Source: a virus (taxonomy: Duplodnaviria; Heunggongvirae; Uroviricota; Caudoviricetes). From it: a DNA stretch of 11,649 bases. Below are positions 1-8,274 of the stretch, piece by piece (within the stretch, counting starts at the first letter, position 1; every line of letters begins with the position of its first letter). The translations under genes were made by a program, and so were the position numbers. The notes under the pieces were generated by a model. That model did not search any database. It was not told the origin of the DNA and saw only the letters and a list, made by a program, of their open reading frames with translations. Where the stretch lies: positions 1 through 11,649 of the IMG/VR virus record IMGVR_UViG_2737471839_000019; one strand, written 5' to 3'.

Positions 1-477
1 ATGAAACTCATCAGTAACGATCTGCGCGATGGCGATAAATTGCCGCATCGTCATGTCTTTAACGGCATGGGTTACGATGGCGATAATATTTCACCGCATC
101 TGGCGTGGGATGATGTTCCTGCGGGAACGAAAAGTTTTGTTGTCACCTGCTACGACCCGGATGCGCCAACCGGCTCCGGCTGGTGGCACTGGGTAGTTGT
201 TAACTTACCCGCTGATACCCGCGTATTACCGCAAGGGTTTGGCTCTGGTCTGGTAGCAATGCCAGACGGCGTTTTGCAGACGCGTACCGACTTTGGTAAA
301 ACCGGGTACGATGGCGCAGCACCGCCGAAAGGCGAAACTCATCGCTACATTTTTACCGTTCACGCGCTGGATATAGAACGTATTGATGTCGATGAAGGTG
401 CCAGCGGCGCGATGGTCGGGTTTAACGTTCATTTCCACTCTCTGGCAAGCGCCTCGATTACTGCGATGTTTAGTTAA
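1..477 (+). CDS. ybhB: PEBP/UPF0098-family protein YbhB (host chromosomal gene flanking the lambda attachment site)
   Basis: Complete 158-aa ORF from ATG at 1 to TAA at 475-477. The sequence (MKLISNDLRDGDKLPHRHVF...YDPDAPTGSGWWHWVV...) is recognised from memory as E. coli YbhB, and the PEBP-like motif DPDAP...GxxHY is present. GC content is host-like. Confidence 0.9.
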   Translation: MKLISNDLRDGDKLPHRHVFNGMGYDGDNISPHLAWDDVPAGTKSFVVTCYDPDAPTGSGWWHWVVVNLPADTRVLPQGFGSGLVAMPDGVLQTRTDFGKTGYDGAAPPKGETHRYIFTVHALDIERIDVDEGASGAMVGFNVHFHSLASASITAMFS

Positions 478-485
478 TCACTCTG

Positions 486-508
486 CCAGATGGCGCAATG
501 CCATCTGG
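486..508 (+). terminator. GC-rich hairpin just downstream of the ybhB stop, possible ybhB terminator
   Basis: Perfect 9-bp inverted repeat CCAGATGGC (486-494) / GCCATCTGG (500-508) with a 5-nt loop GCAAT, starting 9 nt after the ybhB stop. The trailing sequence is only moderately T-rich (TATCACTT, then T-runs at 535-548), so intrinsic-terminator status is uncertain. Confidence 0.4.
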
Positions 509-540
509 TATCACTTAAAGGTATTAAAAACAACTTTTTG

Positions 541-735
541 TCTTTTTACCTTCCCGTTTCGCTCAAGTTAGTATAAAAAAGCTGAACGATAAACATAAAA
601 AACTGTAAATATCAATATGTTATGAAAGATTTAGTCTAAATAATAGACTGCATAATACTACAAAACACAACATATCCAGTCACTATGAATCAACTACTTA
701 GATGGTATTAGTGACCTGTAACAGAGCATTAGCGC
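541..735. other. Prophage-host junction attR (lambda-type: B' arm, 15-bp core, P arm with arm-type Int sites)
   Basis: The 15-bp core TTAGTATAAAAAAGC (568-582) is the reverse complement of the lambda common core GCTTTTTTATACTAA. The ybhB-side flank (557-567, ttcgctcaag) matches the attB B' arm (reverse complement CTTGAGCGAA). The phage-side flank GCTGAACGA...(583 onward) matches the lambda attP P arm as recalled. Arm-type Int sites are present: CAGTCACTATG (679-689) and TTAGTGACCTG (707-717). The central P-arm segment (about 590-660) diverges from lambda. Confidence 0.8.
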
Positions 736-770
736 AAGGTGATTTTTTGTCCTCTTGCGCTAATTTTTTG
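728..770 (+). terminator. sib/tI-like hairpin with T-run (lambda int retroregulator/terminator homologue) on the phage side of attR
   Basis: 11-bp perfect inverted repeat ATTAGCGCAAG (728-738) / CTTGCGCTAAT (754-764) with a 15-nt loop, followed by TTTTTTG (765-770). It lies about 150-190 bp from the core on the P-arm side, where lambda sib/tI lies, and the flanking sequence GCATTAGCGCAAGG matches the reverse complement of recalled lambda sequence left of attP. The T-run is on the + strand, the direction of lambda int read-through. Confidence 0.55.
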
Positions 771-903
771 TCACCGCACTGGGTTAGTTGAATTTACAAC
801 CATGCTCAGTATCTCGATAAACGCAGAGAAATGATGCAGTGGTGGGCGGACTGGCTTGATGAGAAGTTTAAAGTTAGCTCATGAAAAATGACATACCAGT
901 TTA

Positions 904-929
904 TGGTATAAGTAGATCACGTGTATACT
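904..929 (+). promoter_or_regulatory. Candidate sigma70 promoter for the acyltransferase moron (extended -10 TGGTATAAG at 904-912, or -10 TATACT at 924-929)
   Basis: AT-rich 200-bp non-coding stretch upstream of the 975 start. TGnTATAAG resembles an extended -10, and TATACT sits about 45 nt upstream of the ATG. The -35 elements are weak. Sequence inspection only. Confidence 0.2.
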
Positions 930-974
930 GTCAAGGTTCTCATTAACAATCACACAAAATAATCGGAAAATACA

Positions 975-2096
975 ATGAAACACGTTACTTCTCTTGATGG
1001 AGCTAGAGGAATTGCCGTCATAATGGTCATGTTATTTCATTCTAATATACCTTGGGCATCTTTGGGGTGGGCTGGTGTTCCATTATTCTTTTGCCTTTCG
1101 GGGTTCCTGATCACATCAATTCTTGAGGAAGACAGGAAGTATAGATTTGCCGGGTATATTAAAAAGTTTCTAATAAATAGATCGTTGAGAATATTTCCTC
1201 TATTCTATCTATACCTTGCGGTTAATTTTGTAATAGTTAAATCAATGGGAGGAGGTACGGAAGGTTATTCTTGGTTTGTCACCTACTTACAAAACTATTA
1301 CATTGGTAATAACATAACAACACCAGGAATACTTGGACACACATGGTCTCTAGCTATAGAAGAACAATTCTATTGGATTTGGCCTATTGTAATATTTTTT
1401 ATTCGCCCACCAAAGGAAGTATGTTTTTTTGTATTTCTTGTGATAATCTCACTAGCTTCTAGATATTTTATATTCAATATTTCTGGAGGTAATCCGTATA
1501 TAACTAACGTAACTCTTATCAGTTGTGTTGATATGCTTGTCCTAGGCGCTATCTTTGCTCATATAAAGGATAGCAATAAAGCACCACAAATAGCCATGTT
1601 GACATTTATAGTTGGTTCTATTGTTACTGCATATGGCGTTATAAATATTGGGATTAATAATTTTTGGCATCCAGAGCAGTGGGTTGGCAAGGGATTATAC
1701 CTATTTACATCATTAGGGATGACATTCTCATCAATTATTTGGTTCTTATATTATTCATCAGGGAAAATGACAGGCCAGCAACAGACAGCAACAGCCAGCA
1801 ACATTTTACAACTATTTATAACGACTTGTAACAAGATATTTAACTTAAAATTCCTTAGATTTACAGGAAATATAAGTTACGGCCTTTACATGTGGCACTT
1901 GCTATGTTTTTCAATAGTAAGAAAAATGTTTTCATTTGTAGGAATCACAACTGATGGATTCACTTACATAGCTGCTTCATTTATTGTATCATATGCAGTT
2001 TCAATAGCATCATTTTACTTATTTGAGAGTTTTTTCCTTCGTTTTAAAGTAAAATCTTGCAGAGAAGGCCTTATTTTAAGAAATTCAGTAAAATAA
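975..2096 (+). CDS. Acyltransferase-3 family integral membrane O-acyltransferase (Oac/OafA-like; putative O-antigen acetylase for lysogenic conversion)
   Basis: 373-aa ORF that is very hydrophobic with multiple predicted transmembrane segments. The N-terminal motif LDGARGIAVIMVMLFHS is typical of the acyltransferase-3 family (conserved R-G and H in TM1). The gene is strongly AT-rich compared with flanking phage genes. It lies between the tailspike gene and att, where Sf6 oac and P22 gtrABC lie, and is convergent with the tailspike. A putative RBS GGAAAA precedes the ATG. Confidence 0.8.
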   Translation: MKHVTSLDGARGIAVIMVMLFHSNIPWASLGWAGVPLFFCLSGFLITSILEEDRKYRFAGYIKKFLINRSLRIFPLFYLYLAVNFVIVKSMGGGTEGYSWFVTYLQNYYIGNNITTPGILGHTWSLAIEEQFYWIWPIVIFFIRPPKEVCFFVFLVIISLASRYFIFNISGGNPYITNVTLISCVDMLVLGAIFAHIKDSNKAPQIAMLTFIVGSIVTAYGVINIGINNFWHPEQWVGKGLYLFTSLGMTFSSIIWFLYYSSGKMTGQQQTATASNILQLFITTCNKIFNLKFLRFTGNISYGLYMWHLLCFSIVRKMFSFVGITTDGFTYIAASFIVSYAVSIASFYLFESFFLRFKVKSCREGLILRNSVK

Positions 2097-2104
2097 ATTA
2101 TATG

Positions 2105-2137
2105 TTCGGCATCGGTATTTTATACACTGATGCCGAA
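2105..2137. terminator. Hairpin between the convergent acyltransferase and tailspike genes (candidate bidirectional terminator)
   Basis: Inverted repeat TTCGGCATC (2105-2113) / GATGCCGAA (2129-2137) with an inner GTAT/ATAC pairing, in the 48-bp gap between the two stop codons (2096 and 2145). Flanks are A/T-rich on both sides. Confidence 0.45.
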
Positions 2138-2144
2138 ATATCAT

Positions 2145-4055
2145 TTATTCTATAGACATTCTGCTATTTGCAAAATCATAAGCATCTTGTGATTTAATGA
2201 ATTGACAAACAAAATAGTCATTTAACCTAACTACACATCCAGATGTTGTTTTCAATGTTAACTTTACTGCGCCTGATTTTACTGCTCTCCCTACTCCAAA
2301 TGTGTGTACCCATTCACCTGTAGAGGTGTATATGTTGCCAAGCTGATCTGTATCACCTGAGAACGATCCTGTAACATCACCTGATACAAGTTTAATGCTA
2401 CATCCCCAAACAACATGGTAAAACTTAGCTATGTTAGCTGGTGAAATATTCAATGATATCGTGTAACCGGCTGGAATGTTTACCTGTGCACATTTATCAG
2501 ATAACGATCCGTCAGACACGCTTGAGCCATCAACGGTGCCAGTTCCTAAAAACTGCCATGGACCATCACCTGTAAATGACTCTGAATTAAGAATTTCGCC
2601 AGTTGGCAACCTTTTAACCCTTCCTTTTATTGAAGTGCCTCTTAAAGATATATCTACGTTCTGCAATGCTCCAAAGTGTTGTATTGCTATCGACTCAACG
2701 TGAATGCTAGGACCAATGTAACCATCACAGACAACATCCCTTGCAATAATCTTGCTTGTATCATCAATCTGAATATCGTAAATACCAGTAGCGCTATCAA
2801 ATCTGCACCCTCTGGCTATTAAAGTAGAATTTATTAGTTCAATGTTATTAAAATAGCACTGCTCAGCCACCACAGAAGGCATATCAACAAGTTTAAGTTG
2901 CCTTGGCTTCTGTACCACGCCATCAATATCAACAGTTTCGTCTTTAGCTACCAGTTCAAACCAAACGTTTGAAATTACCGGTGGAACAACAGGAGCAAGG
3001 TCATTACCATTCAAATATATACCGCCACCTTCGCATTGTTCCATGATGCAGTCCTGGATTTTTATTGCATCAATTCCACCTCCTGGTGCTGGTCCTCCAA
3101 TCTTTCCATTTATATAAATGCAATATTTTTTTATTCCAGCAAAGTGGCAATTTTGCCATGAATCTGAACCTGCGTGCATATTATTTTCAGATTGCGCCTT
3201 GTGTCCGTAATTGCATTCAAGATAGCTACAATGCTTATATGTATTACCAATGTTTCCTTTTGGCTTGTAAACTCCAATATCAAGACCGTCAAAAGCAATA
3301 TCCCTAAAGTTCCATCGGCCATCAAGATTAGACGATCCAAAAGCTATGCCAATTCCTTGTGGTGTGGAAATATTTCCCTCAATAAGGAAGTTCTGCGCGT
3401 GGCGATATTGCCATAATCGCGATGATTCAGATAGTGTAATGCTTGTCTTGCCAATGTCTGGCTTAAAGATAACATTATATCCGGTACCAATGAGATTGGC
3501 GTTTCCGGAAGTGTATTCTCCAGTATATGTACCAGGAGTAATTAACAGATCGTCGCGATATCTTGTGATATCAATAGCCTCTTGTAGGTCTACGTAATTA
3601 CCGGAGTGCTTGATATCATCCAGGTTGTTATAAACAGTTCGCACACCAATGCCAACTTTCTTTGCCCCTTCGATTCCTGCGAGATCTGCTTTAAACTGTT
3701 CAAACTCTGGCCTTAGTTGGTCAGGGTCATACTTAAGCACATTAGGGAAATAGAACTGCTGAGCACCGTACGCATCATAAACAGCCATAGAATGGCCTTG
3801 CACAGTTACGAACTTGGCAATCTGTCCGTTATATACCGGGTAACCAGCAGCGTTAATGATGATTGGTTGCGAAACAGGAACGTGAGAGCCGTCTTCATTC
3901 TCTACACAAACCTGAATCTGGTTTTCAGGATTTACCGGGTCCGTGTCAATTTTACCGATATAAATTTTGCCATTGGCTACGGCTTTAAAAGAACGAGCCA
4001 TAGTGAAGAGTTGCGAAGGCATGCTTACTACAACATTGGCTGTAATGTCTGTCAT
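2145..4055 (-). CDS. Tailspike protein: P22 gp9-type N-terminal head-binding domain fused to a divergent receptor-binding domain
   Basis: 636-aa ORF. The first ~115 residues ([46 protein letters not shown]...[15 protein letters not shown]...NVLKYDPDQ) closely match the P22/Sf6 tailspike head-binding domain as recalled. The remainder has a beta-helix-like composition with no similarity to P22 that I can recall. A GGAG Shine-Dalgarno lies 8 nt upstream of the ATG. It is the last gene of the late operon, as in P22-like phages. Confidence 0.9.
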
Positions 4056-4219
4056 TTAATTTGCTCCGGACGTAGCAATGCCGGACAAGATGCAACTTGC
4101 CAAGCATTGCACTAATGTCAGTTATGGTTTGTTAATTATGAGATGAGTCTATGCAAAGAGATCTGTTGAATATTGCGTTCTACATATTTGGTTTTTGCAC
4201 GTTCCTGGTGTTTGCGAAG

Positions 4220-6217
4220 CTATTCTGACAACGCATCAGACTTGGCACCCTGCGTCATAGCGTTAATAGCCTTTTGTGCCTGCTGCATGGCTTTCTCAAA
4301 AGATGTTGATCCGCGTGGGGTGTTTGCCATTCTGAGCATTGCATTTCTGAATGGTTCGCTCTCATAGGCGCGAGTAAGAAGTCCGTAGCTTACCGCTGCG
4401 CCAGTTGTCGCCGGGTTCATTGCCGTCCCATACCCGATAATGAACGGGATGGTTTGCTGCCCTGTTGGTGTTGTTACTGCCGCTTTTGCAGCCTGCTGCG
4501 TGGATTGCAGGTAGTTTTTCAATCCTTTCAGATAAGCGGCTTCCTGACCTTTAAATGTGATGCCAGTCTGGTTTTGCAGGATGTTAAGCTGCCGAAGGAA
4601 CTGGTCAGGGGAACCACCTGATTTCTCCATCGCCTTTCCAATGATGCCATTGCGCATTTGCGCCCTGCCAACACGACCAACTGAGTTATACAGAGTCTTA
4701 ATTTCCGATTTGTTCTTGCTGAATAGCATGTTGTTGACAACTTCCGGTGTCAGATCGCCTTTCATGAGAACATTCTTCAGCCTGGTATTCTTTAGTTTCG
4801 CTGCTTCGTCAGCATAGACGGCATTGGCCTGCTGATATTTACGGAGAGTATCGTTGCCAAGATTCTGACCAATGGCACCATTGATATCGTCGGTCATTGC
4901 CTTGTAAACGCGCTGAATGGCAGCATCGGAACGGTTTGGTAACACTGGTCGTTCCCCCTTCACGTCCATTCTGAACTGGCTGCGCAGATCGCTTAATTGC
5001 TTCAAATCCAGATTTACCGGACCATCAGGACCAGCATTGCGAATAAGCTCATCACGATAGGATTGAAGTTTTGAAATCGTCTCGTTATCAGCGACCTTAC
5101 CAAGCTTCTGCAGGTTAGATATCTCAGTATCAATCTGCTGAATTGCTCGCACAGGCTGAATATTTACTCCAGCCATGGCATTCTGAACCTGCTCCAGTCG
5201 ATTACCGGCGGCACGCCGAATTCCTGATGTTTTCGCTTTAAGGCTGTCAATAACAACTGCCGGATCGTACTCGCCGAATTTATCAGCAAATCTCTGCACC
5301 AACTGACTTCTCGCTTCCTGTTGCGTTGCTCTCATTCCGCTTGTGCCAGCCAGGGGGATATTTTCTGCTGTAGTCTGCGCCATTTTCCCGACGCGGGAAG
5401 TAGGCTGTAACAGGTCTGTGGTGTGCAGAGGAACTCCTTCACGCTCTGCAAATCTGATAGCCTGCTGCGCTTCTGGCGCAATAGCACCACGAACGCCACG
5501 ATAAGCAGCACCTAATCCACGTCCGGCAGCGTTAATAGCACCGCCAGCCAACACACCAACGCCTAAATCGGTGGCGAGTGCTTCCGCATCATCTTTCGCA
5601 CTATTTGCAGCAAGTGATCCAACTGCGTTTTCTGCGAGAAGTCGTGTTGCCCCATGAGCAATTCGACCAGCAAGTGTTGGTGCCTGTGTTGCCGCTCTCT
5701 CAACGCCAGCAGGAGTGAGGTAAGGCAATGCTTCAGCAAATACCCTTCCCTCTGTCGTTTGTGGAGTCAGCGCGCCTTGCTGAAGGCCAAAGTCCTGCTC
5801 TAATCCCTGCGTTGTTACTCGTGGCGCTGGTTGATATGTACCATCACCAATACCGAGTTTACCGCCAGCCCATGCCGCCGCGCTTGTTACAGCATCGGCA
5901 ACTGATGCAGGTATGTTTGCCACGTTCACGCCAGCCTGTACCAGTCCGCGACCAGTCTCTTTTACTGCTTCGCCAAGATCAGACATAAATCCACTTTGCT
6001 GTGGTTGTTGCTGTGCTACTGGTTGCTGTGTATCAACTGGCTGCGCAGATGGCAATGGATAGGCAGCATAGAAAGCTTGCTTAGCCTGCTCTGCATTTTC
6101 TCCGGCTTGCGGGGCCACGACTTCATTGAAGTATTGCTCCTGAGCCTGCGCTTTTTGTTCTGGTGCTAACGCCTGATACTGTGGAGAGGCGATAACATCT
6201 TTCCATGCTTTAGCCAT
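4220..6217 (-). CDS. Ejection (internal virion/DNA-injection) protein, P22 gp16-like
   Basis: 665-aa ORF in the position of gene 16 (last ejection-protein gene before the tailspike). Q/A/P-rich N-terminal region and Gly/Ala-rich central region. Its start overlaps the upstream gene's stop (TAATG). Assignment is by synteny and size; homology not verified. Confidence 0.7.
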   Translation of the reverse strand: MAKAWKDVIASPQYQALAPEQKAQAQEQYFNEVVAPQAGENAEQAKQAFYAAYPLPSAQPVDTQQPVAQQQPQQSGFMSDLGEAVKETGRGLVQAGVNVANIPASVADAVTSAAAWAGGKLGIGDGTYQPAPRVTTQGLEQDFGLQQGALTPQTTEGRVFAEALPYLTPAGVERAATQAPTLAGRIAHGATRLLAENAVGSLAANSAKDDAEALATDLGVGVLAGGAINAAGRGLGAAYRGVRGAIAPEAQQAIRFAEREGVPLHTTDLLQPTSRVGKMAQTTAENIPLAGTSGMRATQQEARSQLVQRFADKFGEYDPAVVIDSLKAKTSGIRRAAGNRLEQVQNAMAGVNIQPVRAIQQIDTEISNLQKLGKVADNETISKLQSYRDELIRNAGPDGPVNLDLKQLSDLRSQFRMDVKGERPVLPNRSDAAIQRVYKAMTDDINGAIGQNLGNDTLRKYQQANAVYADEAAKLKNTRLKNVLMKGDLTPEVVNNMLFSKNKSEIKTLYNSVGRVGRAQMRNGIIGKAMEKSGGSPDQFLRQLNILQNQTGITFKGQEAAYLKGLKNYLQSTQQAAKAAVTTPTGQQTIPFIIGYGTAMNPATTGAAVSYGLLTRAYESEPFRNAMLRMANTPRGSTSFEKAMQQAQKAINAMTQGAKSDALSE

Positions 6218-7572
6218 TAATCACCCCATAGTGAAGAAAAATTACTGCTGGCTGCTGGCTGTGATACCTGTGTAGGTTGAGATTGCTGCCGCTGAGATTT
6301 ACCAACATTAACGTTATATTGCTGGTTGTAATTGTCGGTATATTGCTGAATGTCGCGCATTGATTGTTGCAGTGCTTCAGGGCTTGAGAAATCAACCTGT
6401 GGCATACCTTGAAAATACATCTTTGCTTCTGCAACGGTGTTGATACCGGATGCCCCCATGTCTCTGGCTGCTGCAATGCCCTGATTCTGCATCTTTCCTT
6501 GGATTCGCTGTGCAGCGTTGTATAGTTTCCTCTGATCACCACCAGATGCACGGCTACGAATATCTGCACCAAGAGCAGGAGAACCTGAAGAGCCTGTAAT
6601 GCCAGTCATGAAGCCAAGATCGTCAATTGATGCACCAGAAATTGCATCAAGATCTTTCTTCATTGCGTAATTCTGCGCGCTTGCTGCCGATGTAGCCGGA
6701 GCGGCAATAGAGCCAGCAGGGACGCGAACCATATTCCCCTCGTTGTCGATACCTTCGTAGAACGCATTAGCCCCAGCGCCGTGAAGCTTCCCGCCTACCG
6801 TTACAGTTCTGCCATCTGCTAACTGAACTGTACGCTCATTATTCCCAACCGACCCTTTCATTGATGCTCTCTGCATCGATAAATCCTGACCGCGCATCGT
6901 GATATTCTGACCACGCGCTGTTAGCGCCTCGCCAGCCTGATTGCTGCGGATTGTCTCTGCCAGTCTGCCTCGGTCAATCTCACGACCAGCCATCTTGTCC
7001 TGAACATTGAAGTAATCAATCGGACCAAGAGCAGCCATTCCAAGGTGATCAACAAACTCACCAAATCCTGAAGGATTCTGCTGATACATCTGAGCAACGT
7101 TATTAGGGTCAACACCGACGCGAGTCAGTTCCTTGGCGTTGTTTTGCAGCCATGATTGCATTGCTTCTGGAGACGATGACGCAAGGCGTGCGCCAGCCGC
7201 TAAGGTGCCGATAGAATTACGCTGGTCTTCATCAATGAATCCCATGCCTTTACGAACGGATTCAATCTGGTCTGGATATTGAGTAGCCAACTGACGCAAA
7301 GCACCGCGATCACCAGACGCATAAGCATTAGCGTACGCCTGCTGAAATTCTTTCTGCCGCTGAGCCTGCTTTTCCTGCTTAAACACCCCTGCAATACCTG
7401 AAAGGCCTTGCAAAGCAGTCAGCCCAACATTGTTAGCGCCTGAACGCTCAATATCATTGTTCTGCCTGATAAGCTGAAGCGTATTGCCGATGTCATTTAC
7501 GCTCGGAGCGTTTGAGTTGACGCCGCCGATACCAGCCAACAATCCGCCGTTTGTTCCTTGCCAAGTAGCCAT
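6217..7572 (-). CDS. Ejection protein, P22 gp20-like
   Basis: 451-aa ORF (P22 gp20 is about 471 aa) between the gp7-like and gp16-like genes. A strong GGGG RBS lies 7 nt upstream of the ATG. Assignment is by synteny and size. Confidence 0.7.
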
Positions 7573-7581
7573 GATTACCCC

Positions 7582-8274
7582 TTAAAACAACGAGCCAAGC
7601 AATCCGATACCAGCACCAATGCCAGCGCCCCAAGGCGTTGATGTTCCCAAAAGGCTGGCAAGACCTGCACCGGCAATCGCACCAGACGTGCCACCGCTAA
7701 TTGCAGTCTGAAGACTTGATGGTTTATTGGCATTAGCAGCGGCAAGTGCTGCGCTTTGCTGTGCAATGCTGCTCATGTTGTTGGCGTACGTCTGCCCGGC
7801 GTTTGCCTGACCTTGCAGCGCACCAAGCCCAACGTTTGCCAGATTGTTGTAATTGCTCATCTGGTTTGATAACCAAGACTGACCGAGTGTCGGCGCGATC
7901 GTAGCCAGTTGATTGCTTGTGGCTGTCGAACCAAGTCCACCCGTCGCCTCCGCAGCAGCAAGACTCTGGTAACGCGCCTGACCTGCAAGGTCTTTATACT
8001 GCTGAGAGTTGTAATACTGATTAAGTGCCTGCCCCTGACCTTCTAAACTGGAAAGATTCTGCAACTGGTTAACATACTGCTCCGCAAGAGGCGTGAACGG
8101 AGCAAGGTTTTTCATGATCGTCTGCCACTGCTGATTTTGCAGGTCTGCTGCATACTTCTGAGCTTCTGCGGCATACTTTGCGCTTTTATCAGAACTTCCA
8201 CCTTTCCCACCCTTTTCAGGGCAATAAGGTTCCTCGCCGCGCAGTTTTCTGCCCAGCTTAAATGCATATAACAT
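7582..8274 (-). CDS. Ejection protein, P22 gp7-like
   Basis: 230-aa ORF (P22 gp7 is about 229 aa). The N-terminus MLYAFKLGRKLRGEEP resembles the gp7 N-terminus as recalled, and the C-terminus is Gly/Ala-rich and hydrophobic. Gene order is correct. Confidence 0.75.
   Translation of the reverse strand: MLYAFKLGRKLRGEEPYCPEKGGKGGSSDKSAKYAAEAQKYAADLQNQQWQTIMKNLAPFTPLAEQYVNQLQNLSSLEGQGQALNQYYNSQQYKDLAGQARYQSLAAAEATGGLGSTATSNQLATIAPTLGQSWLSNQMSNYNNLANVGLGALQGQANAGQTYANNMSSIAQQSAALAAANANKPSSLQTAISGGTSGAIAGAGLASLLGTSTPWGAGIGAGIGLLGSLF

Follow-up and report, generated by a model that had tools for sequence, protein, structure and literature searches.

A lambda-type attR adjoins P22-type virion genes at the ybhB end of the lambda attachment site in Escherichia coli

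P22-like prophages of Escherichia coli use several chromosomal sites, and some of these sites host more than one phage genus (PMC3603311). For the P22-like phage phiHS3, insertion upstream of ybhC and a complete cycle of integration and excision have been shown (bioRxiv 10.64898/2026.05.19.726188). The Lederbergvirus Huey (PQ850609) has also been published, and lysogeny on K-12 has been shown for it (PMC11990801). Both can be grouped with vB_EcoP-720R6 (ON470605; 720R6 below) as Lederbergvirus phages that have a lambda-type att module. P22-like phages at the lambda site are thus known, since phiHS3 has been published and Huey and 720R6 have been deposited. A second set of close systems consists of Sf6, HK620, CUS-3 and Kapi1, which use argW and an IntS-type integrase. 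A third is Gally of strain LF82, a P22-like prophage that has been shown experimentally to excise (PMC9928086).

We compared these systems with an 11,649-nt stretch of DNA, referred to below as the window. A preliminary description had read it as a mosaic in which a lambda-family int/att module and a P22-type morphogenesis module are joined in a prophage at the ybhC-ybhB attB. Our analysis supports this reading, with its int and attL half inferred from relatives. We consider it very probable that positions 541-773 are the attR (P-O-B') of a Lederbergvirus prophage that has a lambda recombination module and sits at the lambda attB between ybhC and ybhB. The features of the window are collected in Table 1.

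Table 1. Features of the 11,649-nt window, their positions and the basis of each assignment.
Feature	Position	Strand	Basis
ybhB, PEBP-family kinase inhibitor, host	1-477	+	Pfam PBP, E 6e-42; K-12 identity; ybhB annotated in relatives
Host intergenic DNA ending in the attB B' arm	478-567		Identical to K-12 ybhB-ybhC intergenic region
Lambda common core (O), strand-exchange site	568-582	-	Exact, unique match; 15/15 versus lambda
Lambda-type P arm	583-727	-	Pairwise alignment to lambda, IHF consensus scan, BLAST
H2-position IHF motif	610-622		12/13, one change versus lambda
X2/Fis region (putative)	about 640-654		12/15 identical to lambda
X1, Xis repeat (putative)	662-674		13/13 identical to lambda in alignment
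P2 (GenBank lambda 'int 2')	672-691		19/20 identical to lambda
H1-position IHF motif	688-700		13/13 identical to lambda
P1 (GenBank lambda 'int 1')	704-723		20/20 identical to lambda
Lambda tI terminator / sib retroregulator hairpin, then T-run	728-773	+	Lambda alignment, RNA fold
Junction filler, lambda block to integrase relic	774-791		Common to Huey and JNE120393; absent from lambda and intact intS
3' relic of Sf6/HK620/K-12 IntS-type integrase	792-883	+	Translation ending in YNHAQYLDKRREMMQWWADWLDEKFKVSS and a stop codon; similarity to int 3' ends
Acyltransferase_3 membrane protein	975-2096	+	Pfam PF01757, E 4e-24
Tailspike, P22-type head-binding domain	2145-4055	-	Pfam Head_binding, E 3e-66
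gp16 ejection protein	4220-6217	-	PF26808 Phage_P22_gp16 recorded for identical gene
gp20 ejection protein	6217-7572	-	P22 type
gp7 ejection protein	7582-8274	-	P22 type
DUF2824 protein, P22 gp14 position	8277-8735	-	Pfam DUF2824
Tail needle, Sf6-type knob	8732-9580	-	Pfam Phage_tail_NK
gp10	9580-10998	-	Pfam Phage_stabilise, E 1e-297
gp4	11007-11489	-	Pfam P22_Tail-4

The junction between host and prophage was resolved to the base. From position 1 to position 582 the window matches K-12 MG1655 at 100%; this part comprises ybhB, which flanks the lambda attachment site on its bio side, and the B' arm. It ends in the lambda common core GCTTTTTTATACTAA, which is read from the minus strand with 0 mismatches, aligns with lambda 27724-27738 and is the sole match in the window even when up to two mismatches are allowed (0.04 expected). 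Among 5426 complete E. coli genomes searched, those with an empty attB, including K-12, match positions 1-582 at 100%, and the match goes no further than the final core base. When the window was aligned with lambda attP, with K-12 attB and with the two junctions of one complete relative, the five sequences gave the standard P-O-B' pattern, with K-12 sequence on one side of the core and sequence that tracks the lambda P arm on the other. The prophage boundary is thus fixed at 582|583. The core that the preliminary description had placed on the reverse complement at 568-582 is therefore exact and unique in the window, and the host B' arm that it had seen on the ybhB side is borne out by the K-12 identity up to position 582.

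On the phage side of the core, similarity to lambda attP continues, and window 564-773 is 89.0% identical to it over 210 bp (BLAST, E 2e-73). The features of the lambda GenBank record were transferred to the window by pairwise alignment, which placed both arm-type Int sites at lambda spacing and so upheld the earlier claim of a lambda P arm that contains two such sites. The 15-bp core, the host B' arm, P1, H1 and X1 are the same as in lambda attR. There is a single-base difference in P2 and another in H2; the sequence that separates X2 from H2 has diverged, as has the X2/Fis region, where conservation within the arm is lowest. The IHF consensus WATCAANNNNTTR is present exactly at two positions, which match lambda H1 and H2. 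X1, X2 and the Fis site were placed by alignment according to what we take to be their definitions in the lambda literature and, like H1 and H2, are putative accessory sites. The interval first singled out, 541-735, does reach from B' through the core and across the entire P arm, but the lambda-derived block continues to about 773.

The core is of low complexity, and a chance match in AT-rich DNA could in principle produce a resemblance to lambda at such a place. The alignments to lambda attP and to the K-12 ybhC-ybhB region refute this explanation, to which we give no credence: the similarity is highly significant over the whole 210 bp, only 0.04 matches to the core were expected at up to two mismatches, and the K-12 breakpoint falls exactly at the core.

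The outer end of the lambda-derived block is a hairpin that has the same stem as lambda tI/sib; it aligns with lambda 27553-27577, and only the loop differs. It lies on the plus strand of the window, the direction in which int is transcribed in the circular phage. RNA folding of positions 722-780 gave -22.3 kcal/mol (z -4.8), and none of 200 shuffled sequences folded as well. A simple terminator scan of positions 480-1000 found nothing, this hairpin included, which we assume is due to the scan accepting only loops of 3-8 bases. Given the alignment and the folding, the hairpin is real despite the outcome of the scan. The function of tI/sib is known from the lambda literature.

Beyond tI/sib the window departs from lambda, and the b region is replaced by a relic of an integrase gene followed by P22-type late genes. 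Positions 792-866 are 96-99% identical to the 3' ends of the int genes of Sf6, HK620 and CUS-3 and of K-12 intS (96-97% for Sf6, HK620, CUS-3 and Kapi1), and the relic translation that ends in YNHAQYLDKRREMMQWWADWLDEKFKVSS has an in-frame stop before it. Of an Sf6/IntS-type (argW) integration module, the window thus contains only the last ~27 codons, without the catalytic domain. It shares with Sf6, HK620, CUS-3 and Kapi1 the late-gene module, including the Sf6-type needle knob, and the order int, O-antigen modification gene, tailspike, but its integrase is cut to ~27 codons and its attachment module is that of lambda. The argW prophage of strain 47-1826 is 99% identical to the window from position 792 onward, and in this strain a full-length intS continues into the same acyltransferase-tailspike cassette. 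We propose that the ancestral Sf6-like order was attP(argW), intS, conversion gene and tailspike, and that a lambda xis-int-attP-tI/sib block replaced the argW attP and all of intS except its last ~27 codons, with the recombination joint of the swap at about 774-791. Judged from its sequence, 792-883 marks the scar of the replaced argW-type integration module.

The joint between tI/sib and the relic is widespread. Among the 5426 complete E. coli genomes, 755 (about 14%) carry it, as do phage 434, ev099, Gally, several Salmonella phages and an effector-carrying lambda-type prophage at the lambda site of O157:H7. Homology among the carriers breaks sharply at both edges of the relic, the second of them at ~866, where the cargo cassettes differ. 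It is conceivable, though we think it doubtful, that the conserved relic (792-866, 75 bp), fused as it is to tI/sib, is a maintained linker and not a neutral scar. Such a linker might act as a hotspot of homologous recombination that swaps att/int modules and O-antigen-conversion/tailspike cassettes among podovirus and siphovirus lambdoid phages and the resident CPS-53 intS, or it might help to shape the structure at the 3' end of int transcripts that read through.

The same distribution raises the question of whether the locus is compound, with the attR and P arm derived from the remnant of a lambda-like siphovirus and the P22-type genes from a second, independent insertion. In O157:H7, the block formed by the P arm, tI and the intS relic lies beside lambda-type tail genes and effector cargo, and phage 434 has this block as well; it is therefore not specific to P22-like phages. 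However, the distance from the core to the tailspike stop codon is only 1.56 kb and is taken up by tI/sib, the int relic and one cargo gene. Furthermore, attP, int relic, cargo and tailspike are contiguous in the packaged genome of Huey, and relatives contain one P22-like prophage of about 40 kb between two cores, without a second att pair. On the grounds of this short contiguous spacing, the gene order of Huey and the single att pair in relatives, we rejected a compound locus as highly improbable.

Gally was considered as a second example of a P22-like prophage at the lambda site. It shares with the window the P arm from position 637 outward, tI/sib and the intS relic (92% identity), but it sits between torS and torT (locus about 43,300-43,700), and the core-proximal part of its arm differs. 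No lambda core was found at the Gally locus. Because of its location and the missing core, Gally was rejected as an att-lambda example. The torS-torT interval is presumably the site used by phage HK022. The att module of Gally is sister to that of the window; the P22-like backbone is the same, but the core specificity has changed.

That the virion genes are of the P22/Sf6 type, as the preliminary description had claimed, was confirmed by Pfam matches and by gene order. The window encodes gp4, gp10, the gp26 needle, the ejection proteins gp7, gp20 and gp16 and a tailspike with a head-binding domain in P22 order, as is characteristic of a Lederbergvirus virion. Pfam E-values in this module range from 3e-66 to 1e-297, and all late ORFs in the window are intact. 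The ejection genes matched Inj_translocase and P22_gp7; gp16 gave no match in the Pfam copy used for the window. PDB matches of the tailspike, to Sf6 gp14 and the P22 tailspike, cover residues 1-120 only, and no PDB match was obtained for its receptor-binding domain (residues about 121 to 636). Between the start of the tailspike gene and the stop of gp16 there are only 164 bp (4056-4219), and this interval has neither an immI region (mnt/arc/ant) nor a sieA-type gene, unlike P22, 720R6, Gally and P393-F10.

The acyltransferase gene occupies the place where relatives have oac or gtr. Its product is likely an O-antigen acetylase, a predicted function that would make the gene lysogenic-conversion cargo. 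Both this cargo gene and the receptor domain of the tailspike differ from those of Huey, 720R6 and phiHS3. No near DNA match to the acyltransferase and tailspike receptor domain (884-4219) was found among 50,697 deposited phage records, and strain 47-1826, with its prophage at argW, is the only complete E. coli genome in which 80% or more of the window, including the acyltransferase-tailspike cassette, is covered. Positions 884-4219 probably encode a new O-antigen specificity together with the matching conversion gene.

The int and xis genes and attL are absent from the 11,649-nt window, and we therefore turned to identical contigs and complete relatives. An exact look-up of the tailspike retrieved the NCBI draft contigs BIBA01000030.1 and JUDH01000012.1, which match the window at every one of its 11,649 bases; each breaks off within the prophage, before the int end. 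BIBA01000030.1 runs on through the coat, scaffold and portal genes, giving about 31 kb of prophage in total. The ybhB-ybhC interval of JNE120393 contains a P22-like prophage whose two exact cores are separated by 39.5 kb, and beside ybhC this prophage encodes a 72-amino acid Xis and a 356-amino acid Int that are identical to lambda at 71/72 and 352/356 positions, respectively (the Xis comparison was made for this one relative). P393-F10 likewise contains, in the ybhB-ybhC interval, a P22-like prophage about 40 kb long with a core at either end; its Int is 350/356 identical to lambda, a 219-bp excisionase gene lies beside ybhC, and it carries the window's own variant of the P arm (97% identity). 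The six differences between P393-F10 Int (locus 2342-3412) and lambda Int include S6I and H329N, and we take none of them to affect catalytic residues.

The deposited phages complete this picture. Huey and 720R6 have P22-like virion genes together with the same attP P arm/tI/intS-relic block as the window, and their records contain xis and int genes of lambda size (219 and 1071 bp). The GenBank record of 720R6, which is 96.9% identical to the window over positions 483-800, begins with uvrB and bio, passes through the same attR and continues to xis and int. Huey, a free temperate phage that is 92% identical over positions 564-866, has an intact attP and an Int that is identical to lambda at 353/356 positions, and the Int proteins of Huey, JNE120393 and P393-F10 are 98-99% identical to that of lambda. 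A cognate attL accompanied by lambda-type Int and Xis is thus found in JNE120393, P393-F10 and 720R6.

Some relatives at the lambda site are truncated remnants. In Ec40743 the prophage at the same locus (1565-16700) is decayed: a deletion mediated by ISEc52 truncates the coat gene, a partial integrase is left, and no exact core was detected at the ybhB end. This strain shows that prophages at the lambda site can become fixed remnants, and it provides a precedent for the possibility that the window holds a genuine attR of a non-excisable remnant, a fossil site that has lost its int/xis/attL end. The two contigs identical to the window, which stop short of the int end, are compatible with that possibility. 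Against it stand the intact late ORFs, the continuation of BIBA01000030.1 through coat, scaffold and portal, the unmutated core and arm sites and the existence of intact relatives, and we regard a decayed remnant as unlikely. We infer that the prophage of the window still has int, xis and attL and is competent for excision.

The sequence anatomy of the window, its homologies and the complete architecture in relatives are demonstrated by the data above, and the steps of attR excision are established lambda biology that can be transferred to this prophage by homology. Integration would have proceeded by Int- and IHF-mediated exchange within the 15-bp core, leaving the P arm (P1, H1, P2, X1, X2/F and H2) and tI/sib at the ybhB end and P', int and xis at the ybhC end. 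In lambda, P1 and H1 serve integration. Upon induction, Int would bridge P2 and the core, Xis and Fis would bend the arm at X1/X2/F, and IHF would bend it at H2; synapsis of attR with attL would then excise the phage and regenerate attP and attB. Because sib is parted from int in the prophage, as in lambda, int-xis mRNA derived from pL should escape retroregulation by RNase III.

Such an arrangement is not unusual: it is frequent in E. coli and had already been reported. In a sample of 11 genomes with P22-type late genes, three have these genes directly beside ybhB, which suggests, as a coarse estimate from a spread sample, that P22-like prophages occupy att-lambda in a few hundred genomes (about 5%). 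A lambda-type arm at the lambda site was counted, from identity bands, in about 2,100 of 5,435 records. A P22-type prophage with a lambda integration module at ybhB is therefore common in E. coli and already described. A related structure was seen elsewhere: ompW prophages (LC567822.1, PPompW_132418, locus 3500-3775) contain an internal, diverged (83%) copy of an entire lambda-type attR, in which ~75 bp of host DNA from the ybhB side is joined to a core with a 1-base deletion. This copy adjoins the effector genes espO, nleG and espM and has the look of a remnant left by an aberrant excision at the lambda site.

Nothing in these results challenges current understanding. What they add to the described systems is a boundary at base level, a map of the sites, the extension of the lambda block through tI/sib and the integrase-relic scar of the module swap. 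The main value is a clean annotation that gives the prophage boundary, the identity of the integration module and the point at which it was grafted onto an Sf6-like backbone. Lambda, 434 and their relatives should be competitors of this prophage for attB, and through specialised or lateral transduction it could transfer the bio and gal regions. The locus illustrates the free exchange of att/int modules among lambdoid phages across tail morphotypes.
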